DNA from: Brevibacillus sp.
GTDB lineage: Bacteria > Bacillota > Bacilli > Aneurinibacillales > RAOX-1
NCBI GenBank assembly: GCA_036676475.1
Contig: JAKFCU010000028.1
Location: 5,867-69,866 of the forward strand
Reading direction: 5' to 3'
Length of the DNA: 64,000 bases
Positions 748 to 64,000 of the stretch are shown one piece after another; within the stretch, counting starts at the first letter, position 1, and every line of letters starts with the position of its first letter. The position numbers and the translations under genes were made by a program. The notes beneath the pieces were generated by a model. It ran no database searches. It was not told the origin of the DNA and saw only the letters and a program-made list of their open reading frames with translations.

Positions 748-876
748 GAAAAGCAGCAAAGAAGGGGGACACCCCTTTCCTTGCTGTTTTTATCTTTTCA
801 GACAAACATGCCCCATGGCGACACCACTGATGAATGTAAGTATTATACGCATAAGCTTCCGGCATTAGTAGCTTTC

Positions 877-2205
877 TTATCGCGACCGGACTTCAAAAAT
901 GGCAAATTTCAAATAATGTCCTTCATTAACTCCGAGAATTTCCGGATGGTCAATACCTGCTCCTGTCCAATGTACCAGACGTAATATCTTTTTGGCATCC
1001 ACAGCTGCCTCTTCAATCGTGTCTCTAAACAACTCAGGAGACATATGAAAAGAGCAGGACGCAGTGACCAAAAATCCGCCTTCATTAACCAGCTTTAAGC
1101 CCTGTAAATTGATATCCTTATACCCTCTGCAAGCCGATTGGACTGCCCCGCGTGATTTGGCAAATGCAGGTGGATCGAGGATAACCACATCCCATGTACG
1201 TCCTTTCTCGACTTGTTCACGCAAATAATCAAAGGCATTCGCTACCACAAACTCTACCCGATTGGAGAAATCATTGAGCTCCACATTACGTTTTGCCGTT
1301 TCAATAGCATGCTCAGAGATATCCAGGCATGTTACTTTCTTAGCGCCATGTTTGCATGCATTCAGTGTAAACGATCCTGTATGGGAAAAACATTCTAAAA
1401 CCGTTGCCCCATCCCAATAAGGAAAGGTGACGATTTGTCCGTTTTTATTAACGGGAACCACTTTCGGCTGGCCATGGGGAAATGTAGGATTATTCGGATC
1501 GCCCTCCATTACCTGATCTATAGGAACTAAGTGTATTCCGCTTTTTCCTCCCCATCCTTTCATTAATGGAGCAATCGCTGCACGATTTTCCCTCTGGTCA
1601 AAAAAGTATCCTGTTTTTTGACCTTCTTTGATATCTACGAAATAGCGCAATCCATTCTCCTCAATTTCCACCTCGGTATGAAATTCTCCATGCCAAAAGC
1701 CTTTCTCTTGCTGTAAACCCTCAAGCTCCCTTACAGGCACATCGTTGCGTAAATAGATCCCTCTAGGTTGGAAAACATCAAGCAGTGCCTGACGGATGTG
1801 CTCCTTGCGGACTTCCATTCCAAGTGAGAGAATTTGGACAACCAAAATATCCTCAAATTTATCAACAATAAGTCCTGGCAAGAAATCTGCCTCTCCATAT
1901 ACCACCCGATAAGAACCAATGTCCCCTAACAAGCGTCGGCGATACTCTGATGCTGTATGGATTCGATTCTTGAAAAAAGCTAAATCGATTTCTTCTTCTG
2001 GATTATAAGTGAGAACGCGAATGATAATTTGAGATTTGTCATTGATATACCCTTTCGCAAGAAACTTCCCCTTGTGATTCAATACTTCTACCACATCACC
2101 GGGTTGATGTGATCCTTCAATTCGCTCCACTTCGGATTGAAATATCCATGGATGTCCTTTCTCCGTTCTCTTTTTACGATTGCTCGCTAAATATACCTGT
2201 GTCAT
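877..2205 (-). CDS. Class I SAM-dependent rRNA methyltransferase, RlmI/YwbD family (PUA + MTase)
   Basis: 442-aa ORF with an N-terminal PUA-like region. Has FFDQRENR, VLECFSHTGSF and VILDPPAFAKS motifs typical of RlmI-type m5C methyltransferases. Confidence 0.8.
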   Translation of the reverse strand: MTQVYLASNRKKRTEKGHPWIFQSEVERIEGSHQPGDVVEVLNHKGKFLAKGYINDKSQIIIRVLTYNPEEEIDLAFFKNRIHTASEYRRRLLGDIGSYRVVYGEADFLPGLIVDKFEDILVVQILSLGMEVRKEHIRQALLDVFQPRGIYLRNDVPVRELEGLQQEKGFWHGEFHTEVEIEENGLRYFVDIKEGQKTGYFFDQRENRAAIAPLMKGWGGKSGIHLVPIDQVMEGDPNNPTFPHGQPKVVPVNKNGQIVTFPYWDGATVLECFSHTGSFTLNACKHGAKKVTCLDISEHAIETAKRNVELNDFSNRVEFVVANAFDYLREQVEKGRTWDVVILDPPAFAKSRGAVQSACRGYKDINLQGLKLVNEGGFLVTASCSFHMSPELFRDTIEEAAVDAKKILRLVHWTGAGIDHPEILGVNEGHYLKFAIFEVRSR

Positions 2206-2326: not shown

Positions 2327-3259
2327 ATGAAAGAAATGATTATTCCTTTTGCTGTGGGTATTACTATTTTTCTATTTGGTATGCAAATCATGCGAATCGG
2401 CTTAAATAATTTGGCGGGAAATAAGCTAAAGGATATTTTGACCCGCTTTACCAAAACCCCTGTACATGGTTTTTTCACAGGAACAGTCATTACCATGCTG
2501 ATGCAAAGCAGCAGTGCTGTCACCGTCATCACCATCGGGTTGACCAATGCCAGGCTATTGACATTCCCCCAAACCATTGGCATTATACTTGGAACCAATA
2601 TCGGGACCACTGTGACCACGCAGATCATTGCCCTTAATATTTCTGATTATGCCCTTCCACTCTTTCTCTTAGGGGCCTTATTATGGTTTCTTCCCATACA
2701 TGCTCTGCGTTGTACCGGCCTTGCTATAGCTGGATTTGGCTGCATTTTTTTGGGCATGGATGCCATGCAGATGATTGCTGAACCCATTCGGGATACAGGG
2801 ATCTTTCGCGAGCTCGTCCTTATGGGCTCTGAAAACAGCGTGATTGGCGTTTTAATCGGGACGGCCATGACAGCAGCGATACAAAGCAGCACAGCGACGA
2901 CAGCGATTACTATGAGCTTTATTGGGGATCATTTGATTCCTTTAACCATGGCCATTGCGATTATTTTGGGGAGCAATATCGGAACCTGTATGACTGCGCT
3001 GATTGCCTCATTGGGAGGGAATACGGCGTCGGCAAGAGTAGCGTGGAGTCATATCATCTTGAATGTGGCAGGGGTTCTCTTCTTTATCCCCTTGATTAGC
3101 GTGCTGGCTTTAATTACCACAATGATGTCCGATTATCCTCCAGCACAGGTAGCCCATGCCCAAACGATCTTTAATGTCATATGCTCCTTGGCCGTTTTGC
3201 CCTTTGCCCATGCCTTTGCTAAATTGATCGAGTTCATCATCCCACATAAAAGGTCTTAA
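2327..3259 (+). CDS. Na+/phosphate cotransporter family protein (YqeW-like)
   Basis: 310-aa polytopic ORF with a duplicated QSSSA/QSSTA Na/Pi-cotransporter signature. RBS AGGAGA lies 6 nt upstream of the ATG. Confidence 0.8.
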   Translation: MKEMIIPFAVGITIFLFGMQIMRIGLNNLAGNKLKDILTRFTKTPVHGFFTGTVITMLMQSSSAVTVITIGLTNARLLTFPQTIGIILGTNIGTTVTTQIIALNISDYALPLFLLGALLWFLPIHALRCTGLAIAGFGCIFLGMDAMQMIAEPIRDTGIFRELVLMGSENSVIGVLIGTAMTAAIQSSTATTAITMSFIGDHLIPLTMAIAIILGSNIGTCMTALIASLGGNTASARVAWSHIILNVAGVLFFIPLISVLALITTMMSDYPPAQVAHAQTIFNVICSLAVLPFAHAFAKLIEFIIPHKRS

Positions 3260-3362
3260 GAAAGCTACTAATGCCAAAAGGCGTATGCGTATAATACTTT
3301 CCGATAAGTGTAAGAAAGCTACAATTGGCCTAGCCATTGCGTATAATACTTTCTGATAAGTG
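3257..3362 (+). repeat. Head-to-tail doublet of the ~52-nt two-hairpin intergenic repeat (copies 1 and 2)
   Basis: TAAGAAAGCTAC...GCGTATAATACTTTC(C/T)GATAAGTG occurs twice, at 3257-3310 and 3311-3362. The first copy begins on the stop codon of the Na/Pi gene. Confidence 0.85.
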
Positions 3363-3383: not shown

Positions 3384-3425
3384 AAAAAAGATGCCCCTTT
3401 ATCACTTCTGGGTCATCCTTTTTTA
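3384..3425. terminator. Bidirectional terminator-like hairpin between the Na/Pi gene and deoC
   Basis: GATGCCCC-N12-GGGTCATC stem with one mismatch, flanked by an A-run and a T-run. Confidence 0.45.
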
Positions 3426-4604: not shown

Positions 4605-4656
4605 TAAGAAAGCTACTAATGTAGAATTTATGCGTATAATACTTTCTGATAAGTAC
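4605..4656 (+). repeat. ~52-nt two-hairpin intergenic repeat (copy 3)
   Basis: TAAGAAAGCTACTAATGTAGAATTTATGCGTATAATACTTTCTGATAAGTAC. Confidence 0.85.
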
Positions 4657-4726: not shown

Positions 4727-4776
4727 GGGGGCATGACATATTAGCTATGGCTAATATGTCATGCCCCCGTTTTTTT
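4727..4776 (-). terminator. Rho-independent terminator of the 5651-to-4871 operon (hairpin is symmetric, possibly bidirectional)
   Basis: Perfect 19-bp stem GGGGGCATGACATATTAGC / GCTAATATGTCATGCCCCC with a 4-nt loop. T-rich tracts follow on both strands. Confidence 0.8.
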
Positions 4777-6750: not shown

Positions 6751-6853
6751 TTTTTTATTTCCTTGGTATTACTGCACTCTTTGGTATTTTTCTTTAAATT
6801 CAAGCAAGAATTCGCATACTATTTCTCGAATATGGAAAAAATTATTGTACAGT

Positions 6854-6896
6854 GTGAATTTAACTGTGAATTATTATGTGGTTTTCTTTGTGAATT
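6854..6896 (+). repeat. 12-bp-phased direct repeats of GTGAATT (iteron/operator-like)
   Basis: GTGAATT occurs at 6854, 6866 and 6890, with a degenerate GTGGTTT at 6878. The array sits immediately upstream of GGAAGGAG. Confidence 0.65.
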
Positions 6897-10117: not shown

Positions 10118-10169
10118 TAAGAATGCTACTGAACGTAGCTTATGCGTATAACACTTGACTGATAAGTAT
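10118..10169 (+). repeat. ~52-nt two-hairpin intergenic repeat (copy 4)
   Basis: TAAGAATGCTACTGAACGTAGCTTATGCGTATAACACTTGACTGATAAGTAT, lying between the rsmE stop and the mtaB start. Confidence 0.85.
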
Positions 10170-15620: not shown

Positions 15621-17168
15621 CTATTCCTGATCATCGGCAAGGGATTTCATCCGAATCACAGTATGAATTCTTAATATACTTTCAGCTACCTCTGCAGCAG
15701 CCTGAAGTGCATATTTCTTGACTAGGGTAGGATCAAAGATACCGATCTCCCCCAAATCTTTCACTTTTCCATCGGTAAAATCCAATCCAATGGACGTCGA
15801 GGCAGAACGGAGCTGAGCCGATCTTATGGCCTCCAATTTCTCCAATGTATTGAATCCTGCATTGATGATCATTTGGGCAAGAGGCCTTTGCAAAGCGGCA
15901 ATAACGGCTTCAACCCCATAGCCTTCAAGTCCCTGGATGCCGGTTCTCCAAGCTTCCAAATCTCTGACTACGGCCATCTCTGCGCTTCCGCCTCCAGAGA
16001 CAATTCCGCCTTTAATGGCCGCTTGAACAGAAGCGGCTGCATCTCTGGCAATTCTTCCGCGTTCACCGACCACTTCGGATGTCGAAGCTCCTACCAGAAT
16101 GGTAGCTGTCGGCTTTCCGCTTCCGTTTTCAATTCTCACCCGTCCCGTACGTTCATCCGCTCGAAAGCGTTCCGCTTTACCTAGCAAGACGAGAAGATCT
16201 TCTTCCGTTTTATGCAACCCTGTACGCTTGATGGGTTTTGCCCCTGTATGCTCCGCTAATCTTATGATCTCTTGCTTCGATGTTCTATGTAGTACCGTTA
16301 TTCCATGATCAGAACAAAATTCTTCAGCATAGGGATCACAGGTTCTCTGGCATACAATCAAATGGATGCCCAGATTAGCTATCCTCTGAAGATTATATTT
16401 AAACGTTTCCTTGTAATCAAGAAAACGTTGGAATCCGATTTCTGTTCCAAGCGCTTCATCATCGATCTCTTCAGGGGCCAGAGCATCTTCCATTATCAAA
16501 ATCATCGGTTGGTCGATTTCCATAGGCATTTGTTTGGAAATAGGCAACTTACTCAGCAAAACACCGGAAAGCACTTCGCTTTCTTCCCCTTCGTAAGGAT
16601 GAACAAGGTCAGATAATGTCCTTTGCTCATCAAGCAGCGAATCCAAGCCAACTGCTCTTGCTCCTTGCATAACTAAGTCACAAATATCCGCATTTTCCCT
16701 GGCTGCAATCAATGCCACTCTTTGCAGATGAGGATCATCCAAATGAGAGATGGGAGTGGACAATTGTGCAAATCGATCCAGTGCAAATGCCACTCCTTTA
16801 CTCATTCCGGTTATGACTTGAACCACAGGGACACCCCTTTGGACCTGGGCGGCACCCTCTTGTACCAAGGCACTTCCAAATATGGTAGCCGTGGTGGTTC
16901 CATCCCCGACCTTTTCCTGTTGGGCCATAGCAATTTTGATTAGCATTCGGGCCGCTGGATGCTTGACTTCCATTTTTTCCAGGATGGTAACCCCATCATT
17001 GGTGATCATGACCTCGCCTAAATCATCTACTAGCATCGTATCCAGACCTTTTGGCCCCAAAGTCCCTTCCACAGCAGAGGAAACGGCACGAACGGCATTT
17101 ACGTTATGGAGCAAAGTCATTAGCCGTTCATCACCTGTTTTATGCCCATTTTCATTCGTTCGGCTCAT
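15621..17168 (-). CDS. Thermosome/CCT-like chaperonin (group II-like, 'group III' bacterial type)
   Basis: 515 aa from ATG 17168, 1 nt after the hrcA stop. Motifs are LGPKGLDTMLV, ITNDGVTILEKMEVKHPAARML, VGDGTTTATIF and VSGGGSAEMA, which are thermosome/TCP-1 signatures rather than GroEL. There is no GGM tail. Confidence 0.85.
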   Translation of the reverse strand: MSRTNENGHKTGDERLMTLLHNVNAVRAVSSAVEGTLGPKGLDTMLVDDLGEVMITNDGVTILEKMEVKHPAARMLIKIAMAQQEKVGDGTTTATIFGSALVQEGAAQVQRGVPVVQVITGMSKGVAFALDRFAQLSTPISHLDDPHLQRVALIAARENADICDLVMQGARAVGLDSLLDEQRTLSDLVHPYEGEESEVLSGVLLSKLPISKQMPMEIDQPMILIMEDALAPEEIDDEALGTEIGFQRFLDYKETFKYNLQRIANLGIHLIVCQRTCDPYAEEFCSDHGITVLHRTSKQEIIRLAEHTGAKPIKRTGLHKTEEDLLVLLGKAERFRADERTGRVRIENGSGKPTATILVGASTSEVVGERGRIARDAAASVQAAIKGGIVSGGGSAEMAVVRDLEAWRTGIQGLEGYGVEAVIAALQRPLAQMIINAGFNTLEKLEAIRSAQLRSASTSIGLDFTDGKVKDLGEIGIFDPTLVKKYALQAAAEVAESILRIHTVIRMKSLADDQE

Positions 17169-17169
17169 A

Positions 17170-18210
17170 TTAACCTTCACCCTTATAAAAGCGGTCCAAT
17201 AGCATCGAAAGATCTTTGGACAGAAAATCGACAATACTAATCACTTTTCCATATTCCATCCTGGTCGGGCCCAGTATGCCTATTGTTCCAACCGGCTTGC
17301 CATCCACATGGAAAGTGGCACTGATGATACTGCAATGACTGATTGCATCTTCTCTATTTTCTGTGCCGATTTTCACTTGAAGTCCATTCGAAGGATGAAA
17401 ATGTTTCGTCAATAGTTCATTCTTTTCCAAAAAATCCAGAATCTCCTTCACCTTTTCCACGTCACGAAATTCGGGCTGCATCATGATGTTTGTCGTTCCT
17501 TTGAGGAAGACCTTTTCTTCAGGTTCTGAGATGAATGTATTCTCCAGTAATTCAATAGCCATTTCATAGTTTTCAAGCAATCGTTGCAGTTCTTCCATTA
17601 ATTCTTTTTGAATGTGCATGCGCAATTCATGTAAGGGCAAACCCGCTAGCTTATAATTCAAAAAGTTAACGAGTTTCTCAATTTCATGAATCGATACACC
17701 TTCCGGAACATGAATCGTTTTATTCTGAACTTTCCCCGTTTGGGTAACGATAATGGCGACTGCCGTCGTGGCATTTAAAGGAATGATCTGTATATGTTTC
17801 AGCTTCGCATCCTTCACTTCATGTCCTAGCACAATCGATGTATAGTTCGTTAAACCTGAAAGAATCGCGGCGGTTTGCTGCGTAATTTGTTCAAAAGCAT
17901 AGTATTTATCAGCGAATAGCTGCCTCATTGATTGAACATCGGAGTGGTCAAGTTGAATAGGCTTCAGCAGGTGATCAACATAATAGCGATATCCCTTCTG
18001 CGACGGAATGCGACCGGCTGAAGTATGAGGCTGCTCTAAGAAGCCCAATTCCTCTAGATCGGCCATTTCATTTCGTATAGTAGCAGAGCTAAAGCTGACG
18101 TCTTCCCTTTTTGAAATTGTTCGTGAACCTACAGGCTCCGCATGACGAATGTAATTATCGACAATGGCATTCAAGATTTGGATTTGACGCGTTGATAACA
18201 ACTTTTTCAC
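17170..18210 (-). CDS. hrcA: Heat-inducible transcription repressor HrcA
   Basis: HrcA N-terminal wHTH (PVGSRTISK...SSATIRNEMADLEELGF). The true start may be the TTG at 18201, given SD GGGGTGA. Confidence 0.93.
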   Translation of the reverse strand: MKKLLSTRQIQILNAIVDNYIRHAEPVGSRTISKREDVSFSSATIRNEMADLEELGFLEQPHTSAGRIPSQKGYRYYVDHLLKPIQLDHSDVQSMRQLFADKYYAFEQITQQTAAILSGLTNYTSIVLGHEVKDAKLKHIQIIPLNATTAVAIIVTQTGKVQNKTIHVPEGVSIHEIEKLVNFLNYKLAGLPLHELRMHIQKELMEELQRLLENYEMAIELLENTFISEPEEKVFLKGTTNIMMQPEFRDVEKVKEILDFLEKNELLTKHFHPSNGLQVKIGTENREDAISHCSIISATFHVDGKPVGTIGILGPTRMEYGKVISIVDFLSKDLSMLLDRFYKGEG

Positions 18211-18286: not shown

Positions 18287-19444
18287 CTATCCCAAAAACC
18301 GTACAAATACTTCATTTCCTAGCGGAATCCCCTTTTCCGTCAAGCGAATCCGGTCTCCTTCTTCCACTAGCAAACCAAGTTGGGATAGGTCCTGCAAGGG
18401 AGACTGAAAGCGTTCAACTAGAGATTCCTGATAACGGTCAAAGAACTCTTGCTTAGATATGCCTTCCATAAGTCGAAGGCCCATAATCATAAACTCTTCC
18501 ATGGCATCTTGCTTGCTTACAGGAAATTCCTCAACCCGGGGCAATCTCTTTTCCGTTACGAGCTGAATATACTGTTGGACCGGGCCCGCGTTCACATGTC
18601 GCTTTCTTTCCACATATCCATGCGCTCCGGCCCCTACCCCATAATAGTCATCATTTTTCCAATAAGTTCTATTATGCCCGCTTTGAAATCCCGGTTTTGA
18701 AAAATTGCTAATTTCATATTGAGAATAGCCGTGTTTGTGCATTTCATTTCTGACCAACTCATACATAGCCACCTCTTCATCTTCCGGAGGCAGAACCAAC
18801 TGATTTTTTTCGTAAAGGACATGAAACAAGGTGTTTTCCTCTACTTTCAGGCTATAAGCGGAAAAGTGCTGCAGATCGAAGGAAAAAGCCGTATCTAACG
18901 TATCTTGAAAGAGATGCATCGTTTGTCCAGGAAGTCCAAAAATCAAATCAATCGAGATATTATCAAAACCCGCTTTTCTTGCATCCTCAATACTCTTGTA
19001 AACCTGCTTTGTATCATGGATGCGCCCCATTCGCTTCAATAACTCATCATCAAAAGCTTGCACGCCGTAGCTGAGGCGATTGACTCCCCCTTGCTTCATC
19101 AAGATTAGTTTATCCAAGTCCGTTGTACCTGGATTCGCCTCCATGGTAAATTCCAGTTCTTTCGATTGATGTGGAAAAGCCTGCTGGACTGATCTCAAAA
19201 AATACTCCATTTGATCTCCACTGAGAAAAGTGGGGGTCCCACCCCCAACAAAAATGGTTTGGATGAATTCAGGAGGCGCAAGTCGCACGGTTTCCTTCAT
19301 TTCTTTCTCTAAAGCATAAAGATAGTCCCAAACCAATTGCTGATTTTGGGTGACATAAGAGTTAAAATCGCAGTAATAACATTTGTTTGTACAAAAGGGA
19401 ATGTGGATATACACGGACTGAGGCAACGCGTCATCCTCCTTCAT
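18287..19444 (-). CDS. hemW: Radical SAM heme chaperone HemW (HemN-like, oxygen-independent coproporphyrinogen oxidase family)
   Basis: IHIPFCTNKCYYCDF radical-SAM motif plus a HemN_C domain. The likely real start is TTG at 19426, 8 nt after AAGGAGG. Confidence 0.88.
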   Translation of the reverse strand: MKEDDALPQSVYIHIPFCTNKCYYCDFNSYVTQNQQLVWDYLYALEKEMKETVRLAPPEFIQTIFVGGGTPTFLSGDQMEYFLRSVQQAFPHQSKELEFTMEANPGTTDLDKLILMKQGGVNRLSYGVQAFDDELLKRMGRIHDTKQVYKSIEDARKAGFDNISIDLIFGLPGQTMHLFQDTLDTAFSFDLQHFSAYSLKVEENTLFHVLYEKNQLVLPPEDEEVAMYELVRNEMHKHGYSQYEISNFSKPGFQSGHNRTYWKNDDYYGVGAGAHGYVERKRHVNAGPVQQYIQLVTEKRLPRVEEFPVSKQDAMEEFMIMGLRLMEGISKQEFFDRYQESLVERFQSPLQDLSQLGLLVEEGDRIRLTEKGIPLGNEVFVRFLG

Positions 19445-19453
19445 TGGTCAGGA

Positions 19454-19504
19454 TAAGAAAGCTACTAGCGTAGCCTAATGCGTATAATACTTTCCGATAA
19501 GTAT
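19454..19504 (+). repeat. ~52-nt two-hairpin intergenic repeat (copy 5)
   Basis: TAAGAAAGCTACTAGCGTAGCCTAATGCGTATAATACTTTCCGATAAGTAT. Confidence 0.85.
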
Positions 19505-19675
19505 AAAGAAAAAGGCCTTGGCATAAAGCCAAAGCCTATCATCAGCTTCTTCTTCCGCAAAGGAAAGTTTATGTTCACTAAAGAATTAATGTGTGTGAAC
19601 AAAACTTTTCTTTCGGCATAAAAAACTTCCTCTATAGGCGGTCTGGCTACCTCGAAATACTTCGAAGAAGTTTTT

Positions 19676-23631: not shown

Positions 23632-23683
23632 TAAGAAAGTTGCTGGCTTAGCCAAATGCGTCTTATACTTTCTGTTTAGCTAT
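23632..23683 (+). repeat. Degenerate copy of the ~52-nt repeat (copy 6)
   Basis: TAAGAAAGTTGCTGGCTTAGCCAAATGCGTCTTATACTTTCTGTTTAGCTAT. Confidence 0.6.
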
Positions 23684-24977: not shown

Positions 24978-26114
24978 TTACAGCTTTTGTTCCAGTCTAT
25001 CTTGGATATTTATTCTCCACGTTTCCGCATCAAATGACAAATCTTTTTTCTCCTGATCAGTTTTAAGGGTCAGGGTATATTGCAAGAGTTGCTCTTCTAG
25101 CCACTCCACCTTGACTTCCATTTCAGCTGGCCATGAATGGCTTCGAAAAACTTCCACTCCACCCTGATCGATAATGACTATGGTCTGTACATCCATTTGC
25201 GCCACCCATTCTCCACCCGGAGAAGGATACGCTACTTCACCTCTAGAAGCCGCTTCTTTCGTATCGCTTAACTCAGGGGCCATAAACGTCTGGATCATCT
25301 CTGCCGATTCTTGAGGTGCCAACGCCAAGGGCGGTGGTGTTGTCTCTTCCTCATTAGGAGGCAGAATCGCTGCGATGGAAGGCATTTGCTCCAGAGCTGT
25401 TTTCTCTTGCGGTGCCAATGCCAATTGTTGATCTGCTGCTTCTTGATCGGTTGACTGCAGCTTGGATGATCCAGGTTGATCCTTCCTATTCGTTCGGTCT
25501 GGTGCAGACTCAAGGACAACTGCATCTTTTTTCGGAGAAGGTGATGCTTGCTTCTCCTTCAGAGCAGGTTGCTTGCTATCGACAGAAGGCATTATCTTAT
25601 TCTCAGCTGCTTGTTCAGGCTGTATATCTAACGAACGGTTCTTCGCCACTTCAGGGTGAGCCGATTGTTCTAGTGCAAGATCAGGCGATGATGCGGAATT
25701 TGAAGTTTTATCGGTTGCGCTTTGCATCTGTATTTTTAATTGATCCCATTCAGGGGTCCATAAGTTATCAGCCAATAACCAAATAAATAACACAGCTGCC
25801 GCACTCCCAGCTGCTAGTGCCCATCCTTTCCAAAGGAGGGGTCCCTGCTGAGCCTTCGCTTGATGCATACCGACCACGCTAATAGAACCCGCCTGATTCA
25901 TGACTTCCAACTGAGGCAATATACGATCTACTATGCTGATCGGAGGTTCGATATCAGGTAGATTTTCCAGGTCCAAAGATAAATGACTTAAGCTTTCATG
26001 AAGGCTTTGACATTCCTGGCATGAACGAAGATGCTCATGCATATTTGCCGATTCACTGGACAGATCGCCATCTAGATTTCGCTGAATCAATTCCATCACC
26101 TCTTCACATCTCAT
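24978..26114 (-). CDS. Anti-sigma factor (zf-HC2), single-pass membrane protein
   Basis: N-terminal H-x3-C-x2-C (HEHLRSCQEC), TM WALAAGSAAAVLFIWLL and a P/Q/A/E-rich linker. ATGA overlap with the sigma-gene stop. Confidence 0.75.
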   Translation of the reverse strand: MRCEEVMELIQRNLDGDLSSESANMHEHLRSCQECQSLHESLSHLSLDLENLPDIEPPISIVDRILPQLEVMNQAGSISVVGMHQAKAQQGPLLWKGWALAAGSAAAVLFIWLLADNLWTPEWDQLKIQMQSATDKTSNSASSPDLALEQSAHPEVAKNRSLDIQPEQAAENKIMPSVDSKQPALKEKQASPSPKKDAVVLESAPDRTNRKDQPGSSKLQSTDQEAADQQLALAPQEKTALEQMPSIAAILPPNEEETTPPPLALAPQESAEMIQTFMAPELSDTKEAASRGEVAYPSPGGEWVAQMDVQTIVIIDQGGVEVFRSHSWPAEMEVKVEWLEEQLLQYTLTLKTDQEKKDLSFDAETWRINIQDRLEQKL

Positions 26115-26659
26115 ACGCGAACACCCCCCTTCTGATATTCTGGAAGTAGTTTTTGCAAATGTTGTCTCGCTCGAAACAGATGGGACTTGACCGTATTAAT
26201 CGGAAGCTGCAGCGCTTCGGAAATTTCTGCATAAGAAAAATCTTGAATATACCTCAAAACAATAACGGTCCGGTGCTGATCGGGAAGAAGGTTAATCGCT
26301 TCGCGGACGTCTTTAGCCATATATGCCAGTTCTACTTCTCCCTCAACATCCGCCTTGTCTTGTAAAGAAATGTCGCGCTCATCAATTGATGTGCTTTCTT
26401 TTCGTCTTCTGCAATGGTCAATGCAAATATTCGTTACAATCCTCTGGACCCAAGTGGAAAACTTCGCTTTCTCCTGATAAGTATCTATCTTCTTATATAT
26501 TCTTATTAATGCTTCCTGCGAGGCATCTAGGGCATCCTGTTCATTTTTTAGTATATAAAAAGCGGTACGATAAACCGATTTTTCTATGTCTCTCAATAAT
26601 TGAATTAGGGCGTCGCGATCGCCCGCTTGGGCAGCTCTGATCAGATCTGCTTCCATCAC
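26111..26659 (-). CDS. ECF-type RNA polymerase sigma factor
   Basis: 182 aa with sigma-70 regions 2 and 4 (DALDASQEALIRIYK..., FSYAEISEALQLPINTVKSHLFRAR). The start, GTG 26659 or ATG 26656, overlaps the comEC stop TGA at 26656-26658. Confidence 0.85.
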   Translation of the reverse strand: MMEADLIRAAQAGDRDALIQLLRDIEKSVYRTAFYILKNEQDALDASQEALIRIYKKIDTYQEKAKFSTWVQRIVTNICIDHCRRRKESTSIDERDISLQDKADVEGEVELAYMAKDVREAINLLPDQHRTVIVLRYIQDFSYAEISEALQLPINTVKSHLFRARQHLQKLLPEYQKGGVRV

Positions 26660-49085: not shown

Positions 49086-50024
49086 TTAAAAAACTAATTC
49101 TTTAAAGTAAAACCCAGTGGAAAGCGGGCGATTAGGATCCTGCTTCTCTTCAATATTCTGCAACATCTGATCTACTTGCTCATAGTAGGTGTCTGGATCT
49201 TCTGCATATAAATCGATAGCTGACCGATAAGCCTTTACCACGGCAACATTATATTCCACTGATTTTAATAAACCTTCAATTCTCATGCTGTCCACACCAT
49301 GGTCCATTAAATCATCCAAATTCTCAATGATACAAATATCCTCACTGCTCATAATGTGCGTACCGTTTTGATCCTCATAAATCGGATAAGCAATGTCCTC
49401 CCGCTTCTCTTCCCGCAGATAGAGTCCCCGGTCCATATGCTTTAATTCTTTGCACGCATCTTTCCCCTGATGTTCAAAATAGGAGTGAACAAGCGGGCGC
49501 TTAGAATGGAAAATACAGGAGATGCCATGAACCTGAACCCCAATTTCGATATCCGTTTCGTCCTTGATGGCTAAAATTTCGTCCATATTCAACTCACGGG
49601 ATAGCCATGCGCGCTTGATCCCTTTTGAAGCCCAATAATTTACCGTATGTGCACTCGTTGCAATGATCTCCGGATTCCAATGAAGCACAAGTTCAGAAGC
49701 TGTCACTCTTGTTGACATGAGAACAGCAGGATCTGCATATTCAATGCCGTCCACTCCCATACCGGATAGCTTCTTTAGAAAGTCATCAAGCCCCTCTAGC
49801 TTCTTGTTGTGAAAGAGAGTGTTAACCGCTACATAAAGCTTTTTCCCTCTTTCATGAACGAGAGAGATAGCCTGCTCCATTTCTTCGAGTGTAAAGCTGC
49901 CGGGCAAACGCAAGCCGAATGGATCCTGGCCAATCACAATAGCATCTGCCCCTGCTTCTAAAAATTGATTCAACTCATCTATACTTCCAGCCGTTATAAG
50001 CAATTCAGGCTTTTTCATCCTCAT
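49086..50024 (-). CDS. yrrN: Peptidase U32 family protein (YrrN-like)
   Basis: 312 aa, U32 family paralog adjacent to yrrO. Confidence 0.8.
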   Translation of the reverse strand: MRMKKPELLITAGSIDELNQFLEAGADAIVIGQDPFGLRLPGSFTLEEMEQAISLVHERGKKLYVAVNTLFHNKKLEGLDDFLKKLSGMGVDGIEYADPAVLMSTRVTASELVLHWNPEIIATSAHTVNYWASKGIKRAWLSRELNMDEILAIKDETDIEIGVQVHGISCIFHSKRPLVHSYFEHQGKDACKELKHMDRGLYLREEKREDIAYPIYEDQNGTHIMSSEDICIIENLDDLMDHGVDSMRIEGLLKSVEYNVAVVKAYRSAIDLYAEDPDTYYEQVDQMLQNIEEKQDPNRPLSTGFYFKELVF

Positions 50025-50659
50025 TCACCTTTCTTTACCGAAAACGTTAATCCATCCCCAATCGGGATCATAGAAGTTTCCAAGTCAGGGTGCCCCATAA
50101 TATAATCATTGAAGTCACGCAGCTTTTTAATCATGGGAGCCCATCTTTTATTCTCGACTTTATCTTCCACAACCAATCCCTTAAACAGGATATTGTCACA
50201 GATCACAATCCCTCCTGGTTCAAGATGAGGAAGATATAAGTCCAAATAGGCTTGATACTGCCCCTTCGCCGCATCAAGAAAAAGGCAATCGAACCGATAA
50301 TGGGAGGGAAGTCCATCCCCGGCATCACCGGCAATCAGTTCAATCCGTTCACGCACCCCAGCCACTTCAAAATTAGCAATGGCTCTCTTGATCCGTTCAC
50401 AATCAATTTCCATCGTTGTAATTCTGGCCATGGGGGATGCTTCTGCAAGCCAAATCGCGGAATATCCAATTGCTGTTCCGATTTCCAGTATTCGTTTCGG
50501 CTTATAGGCCAAAAGAAGAGTATGAATCAATTGTATACTTGAAAGCTGAATGATTGGGATTTTCTCTTCTTTTGCCTCTTCTTCCAAGCGAGCCAACAAG
50601 GGACTTCTTGGTGGAATTAACTCTTCTATATAGTTATTAATCGAATCATTTGTAATCAT
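50021..50659 (-). CDS. yrrM: Class I O-methyltransferase (YrrM/TrmR-like)
   Basis: ATG 50659 lies 9 nt after AGGAGA. The longer track ORF would read through repeat copy 7. O-methyltransferase family 3 motifs (ILEIGTAIGYS). Confidence 0.8.
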   Translation of the reverse strand: MITNDSINNYIEELIPPRSPLLARLEEEAKEEKIPIIQLSSIQLIHTLLLAYKPKRILEIGTAIGYSAIWLAEASPMARITTMEIDCERIKRAIANFEVAGVRERIELIAGDAGDGLPSHYRFDCLFLDAAKGQYQAYLDLYLPHLEPGGIVICDNILFKGLVVEDKVENKRWAPMIKKLRDFNDYIMGHPDLETSMIPIGDGLTFSVKKGE

Positions 50660-50692
50660 AAAAAGACATCTCCTGTGCCGTTCCTTTTCCCA

Positions 50693-50744
50693 TAAGAAAG
50701 CTACTGGCGTAGCCTTATGCGTATAATACTTGACCGATAAGTAC
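50693..50744 (+). repeat. ~52-nt two-hairpin intergenic repeat (copy 7)
   Basis: TAAGAAAGCTACTGGCGTAGCCTTATGCGTATAATACTTGACCGATAAGTAC. Confidence 0.9.
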
Positions 50745-50830
50745 CCTTTCAATGTCTAGCTGTCCCCATGTTATGGGTGGGAATTCATCCAAAGGACCTA
50801 ATTTATCTTATCATAGTAATATGGGATTTA

Positions 50831-55795: not shown

Positions 55796-56045
55796 AAAAT
55801 AAAAAACCCTCATCCCAAAATCAGGGACGAGAGTTATTCTCACGCGGTACCACCCTGGTTGCTATCCGAAGAAAATATCCGGGAAGCCTCCTTCAGGACC
55901 ATAACGGGGTCAACCGGCAGGGGTTAGCTGCTCTCTGGATTAGCATTCAACCAGGTTCTTCTAGACGCCCTTACACCCGGGGAGCATCCTCTCTGCAAAG
56001 AAGAATTCAAGGTTTACTGGATCCTTCATCAATCAATCATATTCT
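55796..56045 (-). promoter_or_regulatory. T-box riboswitch leader (Ala specifier GCU) of alaS
   Basis: On the minus strand, the specifier loop GAAUGCUAA has its codon at 55942-55944. The T-box AACCAGGGTGGTACCGCG lies at 55843-55860. A terminator hairpin plus U-run lies at about 55800-55833. Confidence 0.85.
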
Positions 56046-57209: not shown

Positions 57210-57261
57210 TAAGAAAGCTACTGGCGTAGCTTTATGCGTATAATACTTGACCGATAAGTAT
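57210..57261 (+). repeat. ~52-nt two-hairpin intergenic repeat (copy 8)
   Basis: TAAGAAAGCTACTGGCGTAGCTTTATGCGTATAATACTTGACCGATAAGTAT. Confidence 0.9.
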
Positions 57262-57294
57262 GAATAGGGGGCCATTTAAGAGGCCCCCCTAATC

Positions 57295-61482: not shown

Positions 61483-61877
61483 CCTCTACTCTCCCCTTTC
61501 ATTTATCTTATTTTTATGTTTGTATCCCCATGAAGCTTTCATAAATCGCTTTATATCCTTCTCTTTCATTTTTCCATGATGGGATTGTAAATAATCCTTA
61601 ATCTTTATTCTAGTCCATTTTCTGTTGGAAGGTAAAAGGTGTTGGAGGAATCATCTGGAAGATAAGATTGTTTGACAAAATTCCCTGGAAGATCAAGTGG
61701 AAAGTAATCCTCTTTCCATATTCCTATAGGGTCTGTGAATCAACTCAACCTATATTACAACAACTATACTCTTGGATAAAGTTAATGTAAAGTATTCAAA
61801 TCGGGATTCATTCTTTATACCATTAATATGGATCTATGTTTGAGGTGTTCCCCCATGTATCGTATTATTAAATCATG

Positions 61878-61979
61878 TAAGAAAGCTACTGGCCGTAGCC
61901 CTATGCGTATAACACTTGACTGATAAGTGTAAGAAAGCTACTGGCGTAGCCTTAGTGTATAACACTTTCCGATAAGTAT
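61878..61979 (+). repeat. Head-to-tail doublet of the ~52-nt repeat (copies 9 and 10)
   Basis: Copies at 61878-61929 (loop variant GACTGAT) and 61930-61979 (loop variant TTCCGAT). The doublet ends 33 nt upstream of the rarA ATG. Confidence 0.9.
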
Positions 61980-62011
61980 AAAAAACAAGCCAACATGGAT
62001 AAGGATGTTTG

Positions 62012-63271
62012 ATGATGGATCTATTCGATTTTAAAAGTCAAGAAATGAATGCCCACCGCCCCCTTGCAGAAAGAATGCGCCCCAGAAACTTAGACGAGTT
62101 TTTCGGACAAAAACATCTCTTTGGAAAAGGAAAAGTATTAAGAAATTTAATTGAGAGTGATAAAGTTACATCCATGCTCCTCCAAGGGCCCCCCTCCAGT
62201 GGAAAAACCAGCCTTGCCTTTATCATCAGTCAAATGACTGAATCGGAGTTTATTAAATTGAACGCCGTATCGATGGGTCTAGCTGATTTAAAAGAAACCA
62301 TTCAAAGGGCAAAAGATAACAAACGTTTATACAATAAAAGTACCATTCTCTTCATCGATGAAATCCATGCGATGAAAAGTAATGTACAAATGGCCTTGTT
62401 ACCCGTTGTTGAAGACGGGACACTTGTCCTTATTGGAGCCACCACCGAATCGGTGATGCATGATATTATTCCCCCACTGGTATCTAGATGCCGAGTATAT
62501 CACCTTTCTCCCCTTTCTAAGGATGAATTAAAAGAAACTATCCATATTGCCCTTACGGAGAAGGAGCGCGGTCTAGGTGAAGAAAATCTATCCATGACAG
62601 ATGACGCCCTAGAATATCTGATTGATGTTTGCAATGGCGATATAAGAAATGCCCTCAGCGCCCTTGAAACAGCTTCCTATTCCCTTTGGAATAGCAAAGA
62701 AATTACATTGGAACACGTTAAAGAAGCTTATCAGCTTAGATTAAATAATACATCAACCTCTGATTTTTATAATCTTACTTCAGCCTTTATCAAAAGTATG
62801 AGAGCAGGTCAATCTGATGCTGCCCTTTATTGGCTAGCCCGTTTGCTTTATGCAGGTGTGGATCCACTCTATATTGCTAGACGAATAGTCGTCCATTCTG
62901 CTGAAGATGTAGGGATGGCTAACCCACACGCTTTACAAATGGCCATTGCAGCCAAGCAAGCCACCGAATTTATCGGAATGCCTGAAGCACGCATCCCCTT
63001 AGCTGAAGCGGTGATATACATATGTGAATCCCCAAAGTCTAACTCGGCTTATAAAGCGATAAATAAGGCTATGGAGGTCGTGAAAAACAATCGGTCTTAT
63101 GATGTTCCTAACGACATAAAAGATGGTTCAAAGACCTATGTAAACCCGATAGATCGTCCTCATAGCTCGATGCAATACTTACCTCCTGAACTCAAAGGCA
63201 CCACATTCTATTTGCCACAAGATTCAGGTATAGAAGCTAAGATATTCAATAAGTATAAAGAAAAAAAATAG
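62012..63271 (+). CDS. rarA: Replication-associated recombination protein A (AAA+ ATPase)
   Basis: Walker A GPPSSGKTS and an MgsA C-terminal domain. ATG 62012 lies 6 nt after AAGGA. Confidence 0.9.
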   Translation: MMDLFDFKSQEMNAHRPLAERMRPRNLDEFFGQKHLFGKGKVLRNLIESDKVTSMLLQGPPSSGKTSLAFIISQMTESEFIKLNAVSMGLADLKETIQRAKDNKRLYNKSTILFIDEIHAMKSNVQMALLPVVEDGTLVLIGATTESVMHDIIPPLVSRCRVYHLSPLSKDELKETIHIALTEKERGLGEENLSMTDDALEYLIDVCNGDIRNALSALETASYSLWNSKEITLEHVKEAYQLRLNNTSTSDFYNLTSAFIKSMRAGQSDAALYWLARLLYAGVDPLYIARRIVVHSAEDVGMANPHALQMAIAAKQATEFIGMPEARIPLAEAVIYICESPKSNSAYKAINKAMEVVKNNRSYDVPNDIKDGSKTYVNPIDRPHSSMQYLPPELKGTTFYLPQDSGIEAKIFNKYKEKK

Positions 63272-63283
63272 CAACATGAATAA

Positions 63284-63316
63284 AGGGGATTGTCTTAAAT
63301 GACAATCCCCTTTTTA
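63284..63316 (+). terminator. Rho-independent terminator of rarA
   Basis: AGGGGATTGTC-N6-GACAATCCCCT followed by TTTTT. Confidence 0.85.
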
Positions 63317-63417
63317 TACTTATCGGAAAGTATTATACGCATAAGGCTACGCCAGTAGCTTTCTTATACTTATCAGTCAAGTATTATACGCATTTGGCTA
63401 CGCCAGTAGCTTTCTTA
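63316..63417 (-). repeat. Head-to-tail doublet of the ~52-nt repeat in reverse orientation (copies 11 and 12)
   Basis: The reverse complement gives the GACTGAT variant followed by the TTCCGAT variant, the same internal order as the 61878-61979 doublet. Confidence 0.9.
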
Positions 63418-63436
63418 TCTATTTCACGTTATTTTT

Positions 63437-64000
63437 CTATTCACTCACTCTCTGAATTTGGACACCTGCTTTATCTAGTAAGTCATTGATAACAACACTC
63501 GCCATAATCAATCCTGCAACAGAAGGGACAAAAGCATTGCTCGATGGCGGCTGCTTCGCCTTTCGAATCGGAGAATTCGGATTTTGCACAACCTCTTGAA
63601 GCACTTCTTCCCGCTGCTTTACGGGTATCTCTGTAGAGTAGACTACCTTGACTCCCTTTTTGATGCCTTCCTTGCGAAGCTCTCGACGCATGACCTTGGC
63701 GATCGGGTCGTATGAGGTTTGAAATAGGTCAGCCACCTTAAATCGGGTTGGATCAGTCTTATTGGCCGCACCCATACTGCAAATGATCGGAATGTTTCTT
63801 TTTTTACATTCTACAACTAAATGTATCTTACTCGATACGGTATCCATCGCATCCACAATATAATCCAACTGCTCGACAGCTGAAAAGAGCTGTTCATACG
63901 TTTCTTCATTATAAAACATGTTGAGAACGATGACTTCACATTCCGGATTGATGCGAGCAATCCTCTCTTTCATAAGTTCGGTTTTCTCTTGCCCGATCGT
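63437..64000 (-). CDS. tcdA: tRNA threonylcarbamoyladenosine dehydratase (ThiF family), 5' end outside the window
   Basis: The reading frame stays open upstream of the track's Met to the window edge (...TIGQEKTELMKERIARINPE...). ThiF/TcdA-like C-terminal half. Confidence 0.8.
   Translation of the reverse strand, partial: TIGQEKTELMKERIARINPECEVIVLNMFYNEETYEQLFSAVEQLDYIVDAMDTVSSKIHLVVECKKRNIPIICSMGAANKTDPTRFKVADLFQTSYDPIAKVMRRELRKEGIKKGVKVVYSTEIPVKQREEVLQEVVQNPNSPIRKAKQPPSSNAFVPSVAGLIMASVVINDLLDKAGVQIQRVSE

Follow-up and report, generated by a model that had tools for sequence, protein, structure and literature searches.

A 64,000-nucleotide stretch of bacterial DNA (contig JAKFCU010000028.1 of GenBank assembly GCA_036676475.1, positions 5,867 to 69,866 of the forward strand; hereafter the window) contains a family of short intergenic repeats with a unit of 51-52 nt, present in 13 copies at 10 loci. 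These repeats are probably a lineage-specific, non-autonomous miniature insertion element that lands in a fixed polarity after runs of T. The family appears new and previously undescribed, is of a kind familiar from the small interspersed repeats of bacteria, and does not look like a new regulatory RNA. An earlier reading of the window from its letters alone (the sequence-only reading) had described the repeats as an unnamed family resembling repetitive extragenic palindromes (REPs), with two hairpins kept, as it suggested, by selection on structure. The lack of a name holds, as a scan of the window with Rfam 15 in gathering mode gave no matches, and "REP-like" is acceptable in a loose sense only. 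The structural part of that description fares less well, as set out below.

Copies of the Repeat and Their Distribution

Searching with the first 39 nt of the original consensus and allowing three mismatches recovers five copies in the window and none in 100 shuffles, and in a repeat-finding run the copies fall into overlapping families. An nhmmer profile built from the 12 copies first claimed, at nine loci, recovers all 12 (E 1e-13 to 1e-18) at coordinates that shift by 1-3 nt at most. With the same profile a thirteenth copy, absent from the original list, emerges on the opposite strand at 836-879 (E 1.5e-8), and no further match in the window falls below E 0.5. A calibrated covariance model returns the same 13 matches (47-82 bits). 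Other points of the original description stand with this larger set. All 13 copies lie in spacers between open reading frames (ORFs), three loci (3257/3311, 61878/61930, and 63317/63367) hold abutting head-to-tail doublets, and the same ten copies, now 10 of 13, share one absolute strand. With the 836 copy included, the element lies downstream of a gene 3' end, in the orientation first proposed, at nine of the 10 loci, the exception being the doublet upstream of rarA. Strands are given here as the strand that reads YACTTATC...CTTTCTTA (the defining strand), which is opposite to the consensus of the sequence-only reading. Occupied spacers comprise 4 of 6 convergent ones, 5 of 25 co-directional ones on the - strand, none of five co-directional ones on the + strand, and one of six divergent ones. 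At all five co-directional loci the element is co-oriented with the genes; the two loci on the opposite absolute strand are 836 and 63317/63367.

A young core of copies shows pairwise identities of 83-98%. It includes the single copy between mltG and yrrM (50693-50743, - strand), which equals the consensus exactly, and the single copies upstream of the AI-2E transporter gene (57210-57260, -) and between the conserved lepA terminator and the hemW ribosome-binding site (RBS; 19454-19503, -). The remainder of the core is made up of two doublets. One lies in the divergent cymR/rarA spacer on the - strand, with its 5' unit at 61930-61978 abutting the run GTTTTTTA (61979-61986, - strand) and its 3' unit at 61878-61929. 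The other lies in the thiF/rarA spacer on the + strand, with its 5' unit at 63317-63366 directly 3' of the T-tract of the rarA terminator (CCCCTTTTTA) and its 3' unit at 63367-63417. Older relics are 54-86% identical to other copies. They comprise the doublet of 3311-3362 (5' unit) and 3257-3310 (3' unit) on the - strand, the single copy at 4605-4655 (-) next to a Nudix gene, the degenerate copy in the convergent holA/rpsT spacer (23632-23680, -), and the divergent copy at 836-879 (+), whose 5' end is degenerate and which the covariance model scores at 47.3 bits over 823-880. A further single copy (10118-10168, -) lies within the rsmE-mtaB junction, with the 5' flank GATTTTTATA and the mtaB RBS directly 3'. 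Such a mixture of young core and decayed relics is characteristic of mobile elements and consistent with several rounds in which copies were inserted and then decayed.

Sequence databases gave few leads. In E-value mode, Rfam returned for 63250-63450 sub-threshold matches only, centred on the adjacent rarA terminator. Searches with blastn found nothing among PLSDB plasmids and two chance matches of 23-30 nt among GenBank phages (INPHARED). Two two-block patterns run against JGI metagenome and IMG/VR viral contigs returned nothing, or one chance sequence on two contigs that matched the pattern itself only. A search of genome contigs with the pattern GCGTATAAYACTTN{3,4}GATAAGT gave, among the matches listed, two chance ones (a Lachnospira and a Methanosarcinales metagenome-assembled genome, MAG).

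Element Anatomy

On the defining strand the consensus reads 5'-YACTTATC-RG(A/TC)-AAGTATTATACGCAT-(small GC hairpin)-GTAGCTTTCTTA-3'. The unit has sharp boundaries, on which the doublet junctions (..CTTTCTTA followed directly by YACTTATC..) and the empty sites described below agree. No terminal inverted repeats are found between the two ends of the element. Models of a fixed target duplication (TA, TTA, or TTAY) were compared with all flanks and with the three doublet junctions, and none was consistent. A miniature inverted-repeat transposable element derived from a DDE transposon was dropped as a model because of the ends of the element. At two loci the terminal triplet of the element provides the stop codon of a convergent gene. 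The TAA at 3257-3259 (+ strand) is the stop codon of an Na/Pi symporter gene, and the terminal TTA of the 836-879 copy is the complement of the stop codon (877-879) of a gene for an RlmI-like methyltransferase.

On the gene-sense strand one frame runs without a stop across the unit (..KYYTHKATPVAFL..) and across both units of the 63317 doublet, while the opposite strand has stops in all three frames. Open frames of this kind lead to spurious N-terminal extensions of predicted genes, for example the longest yrrM ORF (50021-50752). A protein search with the element-frame peptide (KYYTHKATPVAFL) gave 79 candidates sharing short common words, none at E <= 10.

Insertion History

The host is, as judged from its proteins, an uncultured relative of Ammoniphilus (Paenibacillaceae), a genus placed in the Aneurinibacillus group of that family. 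The LepA protein of the window is 89% identical to that of Ammoniphilus species and 82-84% identical to those of Brevibacillus and Aneurinibacillus. Identical copies of the window proteins are recorded in just one NCBI contig and in the Logan assemblies of SRR17380412-416, and their 90% clusters hold 1-3 members, which marks the lineage as poorly sampled. Syntenic loci were compared in Ammoniphilus sp. YIM 78166 and other Ammoniphilus-group genomes and MAGs (L005-L011 and L018; 66-79% nucleotide identity), in a closer species (L012, L013, and L017; 81-84%), and in near-identical strains (L003, L004, L014-L016, and L019; 97-100%).

Searches with nhmmer and the covariance model (filters off for L017-L019) detect no copy in relatives whose identity is 84% or lower (about 235 kb of sequence), and no analogous repeat family was found in the syntenic loci of these relatives. 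Seven of the 10 loci can be compared base by base with relatives at 66-84% identity, and all seven are empty there. The rsmE and mtaB genes overlap or lie 1-2 nt apart in L005, L006, L008, and L010, and are separated by an empty 38-nt spacer in L013. In the window the spacer is 83 nt long and consists of the element followed by the conserved RBS AAAGGAAGGAGG. At lepA-hemW, relatives share the terminator hairpin AGGCTTTGGC..GCCAAGGCCT with its T-tract, and in the window the element separates that T-tract from the hemW RBS. L005-L012 have an empty site here, and the flanks are colinear: L012 reads GGCCTTTTTCCTATA^TCG..GAAGGAGG (^ marking the insertion point), and the window reads GGCCTTTTTCTTTA, the element, and TCC..GAAGGAGG. 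The flanks of the cymR/rarA doublet are likewise colinear, with GTTTTTT^GGTTTAAT in L017 against GTTTTTTA, the doublet, and CATGATTTAAT in the window. Also empty are the holA/rpsT site (in L006 and L010), the mltG-yrrM site (in L018), and, in both L017 and L018, the spacer upstream of the AI-2E transporter gene and the cymR/rarA and thiF/rarA spacers. The 57210 copy is present in the 97%-identical L019, which ends inside it and has the same junction as the window.

From these alignments, the copies are lineage-specific insertions and not ancestral. Empty sites in relatives, together with a copy in the 97%-identical one, indicate that the family expanded within this lineage. As judged at the aligned junctions, the comparison shows that the insertions arose after the split from the relatives at ~82-84% identity and before the split from the one at 97%. 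Several Logan contigs of the same organism end inside copies (L004, L014, L015, and L019), as is expected when an assembler meets a multi-copy repeat. These breaks are the only hint so far at the hundreds of copies per genome that the sequence-only reading had envisaged. Metagenome assemblies of this organism are thereby interrupted at the copies, a point to consider in binning and marker design. In L017, the relative at 82% identity, past the terminator of the ortholog of a 69-aa gene (6830-6870), the sequence GGTATAAGTAAGTATAAACTTCC holds words such as GTATAA, AAGTAT, and ACTT(T)CC that echo the element. Neither model scores this segment, and the resemblance is probably due to chance.

Probable Insertion Target

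Sequences 5' of the element are T-rich at six of nine loci (CTTTA, TTTTA, TTTTA, TTATA, TTTAC, and CTTTG), mostly with A as the last base. The background for their frequencies comprised all positions at which an insertion could fall within spacers of the window, taken on both strands. A 5' flank ending in TTTA is found at three of nine loci against 1.2% of the background (P=1.4e-4; post hoc). At least five T in the last 8 nt are found at six of nine loci against 12% (P=1.8e-4; post hoc), and the same with a final A at four of nine against 1.9% (P=1.5e-5; post hoc). The polarity of the element is consistent at every locus that has a T-run.

In many cases the T-run belongs to a terminator. At 19454 and 63317 it is the tail of a strong, independent hairpin. 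The first of these is the lepA intrinsic terminator (19513-19537, - strand; -17.1 kcal/mol), which lies outside the repeat, is kept in element-free relatives, and whose T-tract is the insertion site. The second is the rarA terminator (63282-63313, + strand; -21.1 kcal/mol), whose T-tract again forms the insertion site. The 57210 copy begins 5 nt past a strong terminator hairpin (57266-57290, - strand; -18.4 kcal/mol). For the 4605 and 23632 copies and the 3257/3311 doublet, the distance from a preceding hairpin and its T-rich tail is roughly 20-30 nt; at the doublet, that hairpin is a terminator-like one with a T6 run behind deoC (3390-3417, - strand), 27 nt from the 3311-3362 unit. The 836 copy lies 57 nt past the terminator of a +-strand gene. 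The cymR/rarA doublet instead follows a T6 run that is not part of a terminator (the empty allele reads GTTTTTT^GG) and is the complement of an A-run in the 5' untranslated region (UTR) of rarA.

Insertion of fixed polarity 3' of a T-run accounts both for the adjacency to terminators and for the co-orientation at the five co-directional loci. The same rule explains the exception upstream of rarA and fits the opposite-strand doublet behind the rarA terminator. As intergenic T-runs would mostly be the tails of intrinsic terminators on the coding strand, such an element may be expected to accumulate just downstream of genes, co-oriented with them, and most often in convergent spacers. The 3' end of the element, TTTCTTA, itself resembles the target. 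This mimicry offers a simple origin for the head-to-tail doublets. A GGAA-type loop is followed by an AGTCA-type loop in two of the three doublets, an agreement indistinguishable from chance.

Possible Mobilization of the Element

The element may be mobilized in trans, speculatively by an enzyme that acts on a single DNA strand and whose gene lies elsewhere. The likeliest candidate for such an enzyme would be a transposase of the HUH/Y1 type that recognizes hairpins or single-stranded DNA, of the kind found in IS200/IS605 elements and among the REP-associated RAYT proteins. In the IS608 paradigm, insertion is strand-specific and takes place 3' of a tetranucleotide that stays outside the element, with no duplication (PMC3201880). 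The ends of IS608 carry similar hairpins and guide tetranucleotides, and the left cleavage site lies 19 nt from its hairpin (PMC3201880). The present element resembles IS200/IS605 members in having neither inverted repeats nor a consistent duplication, in being inserted strand-specifically on the 3' side of a short external motif, in its subterminal hairpins, and in a 3' end that lies a few nt past a hairpin. A bolder proposal, of low probability, is that the element is the non-autonomous partner of a mobilization system undescribed in Bacillota, either REP/RAYT- or IS200/IS605-like and retargeted to terminator T-tracts, or using some other, possibly target-primed, T-run mechanism. If so, a 52-nt unit with two unlike hairpins would be a new substrate architecture.

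Several observations weigh against a miniature insertion element directed to T-runs, or against its kinship with IS200/IS605. Three of the nine 5' flanks are not T-runs (ATTCA at 50693, AAGGG at 57210, and CCATA at 23632), and the T-run statistics were picked after the data had been seen. A 2-3-nt duplication (TA or TTA) would still be compatible with the data, the empty sites being those of relatives that have diverged by 16-18%. The basis is 13 copies in 64 kb, and the 30 window ORFs scanned with profiles, which are housekeeping genes or lack a family match, include no RAYT, other transposase, or parent element. Hairpin 1 (TACTT..AAGTA) and hairpin 2 (GGCTAC..GTAGCT) are unrelated here, unlike those of IS608, and hairpin 1 starts 0-1 nt from the 5' boundary. 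Strand preference is also modest. The + strand shows a GC skew of -0.12 across all 8-kb bins, and the - strand carries 52 of the 66 genes, which identifies the - strand as the leading-strand sequence; the defining strand of the element is on it at 7 of 10 loci, so that the lagging-strand-template bias of IS200/IS605 elements reaches only that proportion. Finally, selection rather than target choice could contribute to the pattern of position and orientation.

With very short units, sharp boundaries, and empty sites in close relatives, the family is unusually clean for questions of target choice. If the mobilizing enzyme were found in the full genome, the element would offer a compact substrate for strand-specific insertion beside terminators. 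A Y1/HUH or novel enzyme with T-tract targeting would raise the interest of the family further.

Alternative Explanations

According to the sequence-only reading, the repeats form a cis-acting RNA module selected by the host, in which a hairpin with a U-rich tail acts as an intrinsic terminator, an attenuator, or a stabilizer of 3' ends. This account is unlikely, although several features are in line with it. At the nine loci downstream of a gene 3' end, the orientation is such that the transcript would read GGCUAC-GCCA-GUAGCU and then UUCUUAU. The transcribed strand folds somewhat better than the other (z -1.0 to -1.75 against about 0), G-U wobbles favor it by 19 to 4 (10 of the 19 at one fixed position), and a simple terminator scan picks 3 of the 13 copies.

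Selection on the fold itself finds little support in the alignment. Both hairpins are present in the consensus, as originally proposed: hairpin 1 is AUACUU-N6/7-AAGUAU (-2.2 kcal/mol), and hairpin 2 is AAGGCUAC-GCCA-GUAGCUUU (-8.8 kcal/mol; 8 bp with three G-C pairs). Hairpin 2, however, is lost or replaced in five divergent copies, where its energy is -2.0 to -4.7 kcal/mol; most consensus-like copies have values of -7.8 to -9.6 kcal/mol, and the 10118 copy has -7.1. It is down to 4 bp in the 4605 copy and replaced by GCC-UUUU-GGC in the 3257-3310 unit. Folding of the whole unit is unremarkable, the gene-sense values just given applying to most copies (z -0.5 in the degenerate copy). The two-hairpin model pairs 88.8% of cells in the 13-copy alignment, and column shuffles equal this in 369 of 500 cases, with one compensatory cell. 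The claim of selection on structure is thus not borne out, the covariation being no better than in shuffles and hairpin 2 having decayed in the five divergent copies while linker and tail are conserved. Nor do stems stay constant while loops vary, as had been stated. The fraction of non-majority bases is 0.18 in the 5' arm of hairpin 2, about as high as in loop 1 (0.21) and loop 2 (0.28), and the least variable parts are the linker (0.04), the 3' arm of hairpin 2 (0.03), and the tail (0.00), with the hairpin 1 stem at 0.09. Selection on a helix would not leave such an asymmetry, which is expected if sequence blocks are recognized or if the copies are simply young.

The context of the copies also argues against a terminator. 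At -8.8 kcal/mol, with three G-C pairs and an interrupted U-tract (CUUAU), hairpin 2 is much weaker than the terminators of the host itself, most of which reach -17 to -35 kcal/mol in the window. Pre-existing terminators lie directly upstream of the copies at lepA-hemW, at rarA/thiF, and in the spacer upstream of the AI-2E transporter gene, and a short distance upstream at holA/rpsT and deoC, so that hairpin 2 is redundant at those loci. The rsmE-mtaB and mltG-yrrM copies are internal to operons whose junctions in relatives span 0-69 nt or overlap, and efficient termination at such tight junctions would be harmful. A promoter-like site on the - strand was sought in the rsmE-mtaB spacer and none was found. 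Absence of the element at orthologous sites in relatives indicates that a host can do without it. With hairpin 2 weak, terminators already upstream, and copies inside operons, a terminator-like function is not upheld, and the orientation is better explained by insertion after T-runs. Read-through transcription of the element would yield a weak hairpin and a U-rich tail, which would not be the reason for its presence. Any effect at the RNA level would be a side effect, at most a mild attenuation or protection of read-through transcripts, and probably near-neutral.

A second alternative, that the repeat is a DNA binding site for a host protein (a regulator or a nucleoid or topology factor) kept for its sequence and not for its fold, is quite improbable. 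In its favor, conservation is highest in blocks that the hairpin model leaves unpaired, namely AAGTATTATACGCA, with GTATnATAC as a palindrome inside it, and GTAGCTTTCTTA. Recent copies, or the recognition site of a transposase, would be highly conserved in any case, and three copies that are young in other respects carry a disrupted palindrome (AAGTGTTATAC). Moreover, the copies are found not at promoters but within operons and at the 3' ends of genes, and they are lineage-specific insertions at sites that are empty in relatives.

Barely credible is the idea of small RNA genes or portable promoters in which outward or antisense transcription is driven by TATAAT (as read in the original orientation, and TATTAT in the reverse one): the linker does hold -10-like hexamers on both strands, and two hybrid promoter-like matches overlap copies (818-846 on the + strand and 50752-50723 on the - strand), but the element lacks a -35 or a correctly spaced extended -10, those two matches rest on chance flanking sequence, promoter-like matches in the window are about as frequent as in shuffles (45 vs 43.5 and 50 vs 44.3), and Rfam has no match.

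Genomic Context

The window (42.5% G+C) carries a gene block that is classical for Bacilli, with comEC, holA, rpsT, gpr, lepA, hemW, hrcA, grpE, dnaK, dnaJ, prmA, rsmE, and mtaB, followed by alaS, mltG, and rarA. Between hrcA and grpE in the dnaK operon lies a gene for a Cpn60/TCP-1 family chaperonin (515-537 aa; 15621-17234, - strand), which is kept in every fetched Ammoniphilus-group relative (L003 and L005-L012). Its product appears to resemble archaeal-like chaperonins known from the dnaK operons of certain Firmicutes. An ECF sigma factor gene (182-183 aa; 26111-26659) and a putative zf-HC2 anti-sigma gene (24978-26114) lie on the - strand between comEC and holA, an assignment made by synteny, and the pair is common to Ammoniphilus relatives at this position. 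The longest hemW ORF opens at an ATG at 19444 that lacks an RBS. Comparison with relatives shows that the true start is a TTG ~18 nt downstream (MPQSVYIHIP; region 19426-19444), after GAAGGAGG.

A T-box leader upstream of alaS (55820-56038, - strand) scores 78.9 bits (E 1e-17), below the Rfam gathering score of 93, which is why the gathering-mode scan of the window reported zero RNA families; the terminator of this leader is the hairpin at 55805-55835. A perfect palindrome with a 19-bp stem and T-tracts on both sides (4727-4768; -35 kcal/mol) lies 72 nt from the 4605 copy, which is placed between it and the Nudix gene, and is probably a bidirectional terminator. Next to the cymR/rarA doublet, a promoter-like TTGAGG-17-TATTAT is present on the + strand (61840-61868), with the counterpart TTGAGC-17-TATGAT in L017. 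It would start the rarA transcript at about the first base of the doublet (61878-61978), and the 101-nt doublet would then sit in the rarA 5' UTR in the non-terminator orientation.

Comparison with Known Repeat Systems

Small interspersed repeats have been well studied in Proteobacteria (REP/REPIN, ERIC, and Correia elements) and in few Firmicutes (BOX, RUP, SPRITE, and bcr1). To our knowledge they have not been well studied in the Aneurinibacillus/Ammoniphilus group. The present family shares with REPs and REPINs its short, many-copy, extragenic, and hairpin-forming units, its position mostly downstream of coding regions, its lineage-specific expansion, and the lack of terminal inverted repeats and of consistent target site duplications. 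GTAG REPs are defined as imperfect palindromes of 20-40 nt with a non-base-paired GTAG tag at one end, and their dimers are mainly head-head or tail-tail (REPINs), head-tail dimers being rare or absent (PMC3733652). Their reported hosts are Proteobacteria, Cyanobacteria, Chloroflexi, and members of the PVC group, Firmicutes not being among them (PMC3733652), and they are thought to be mobilized in trans by a single-copy HUH/Y1 enzyme, the RAYT (PMC3733652, PMC3116915, PMC3333891). In the element described here, by contrast, GTAG lies within the 3' arm of hairpin 2, paired with CTAC, and is not an unpaired terminal tag. The unit of 51-52 nt comprises two unlike hairpins and a conserved linker, and all three dimers are head-to-tail and directly abutting.

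MIRUs (mycobacterial interspersed repetitive units), which range from about 40 to 100 bp, share with the present family intergenic head-to-tail units that lie within operons and are co-oriented with the genes. They are mobile, insert at start codons, and carry an internal ORF that is translationally coupled to the gene (PMC12548453). Coupling of this type was considered and rejected for the present family, in which the next start codon lies 19 to ~60 nt past the 3' end of the element, with an ordinary RBS between and no coupling geometry. SPRITEs are ~105 nt long, with an 18-bp duplex and AAAA/TTTT termini, are strongly enriched near the 3' ends of convergent genes, and have an undetermined target site duplication (PMC3049150). 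As with SPRITEs, the family described here is a Firmicute interspersed repeat with a hairpin and a U-rich tract, enriched at convergent 3' ends (the 4 of 6 convergent spacers noted above). Its stem is weak, at 6-8 bp, and the copies mostly follow an existing terminator rather than replace one.

The bcr1 element of the Bacillus cereus group is ~155 bp long and is flanked by 5-bp direct repeats (TTTAT) (PMC3184786, PMC6542083). It forms two independent stem-loops, is transcribed, has a distribution that is not conserved between close strains, and shows decay of its structure in some copies (PMC3184786, PMC6542083). In a comparison by description only, the present element differs in its unit of 52 nt, in having TTTAT on the 5' side only (3 of 9 loci), and in an invariant 3' TTA that belongs to the element. 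As a non-autonomous intergenic element with two stem-loops and an association with TTTAT, bcr1 is its nearest analogue within the Bacilli.

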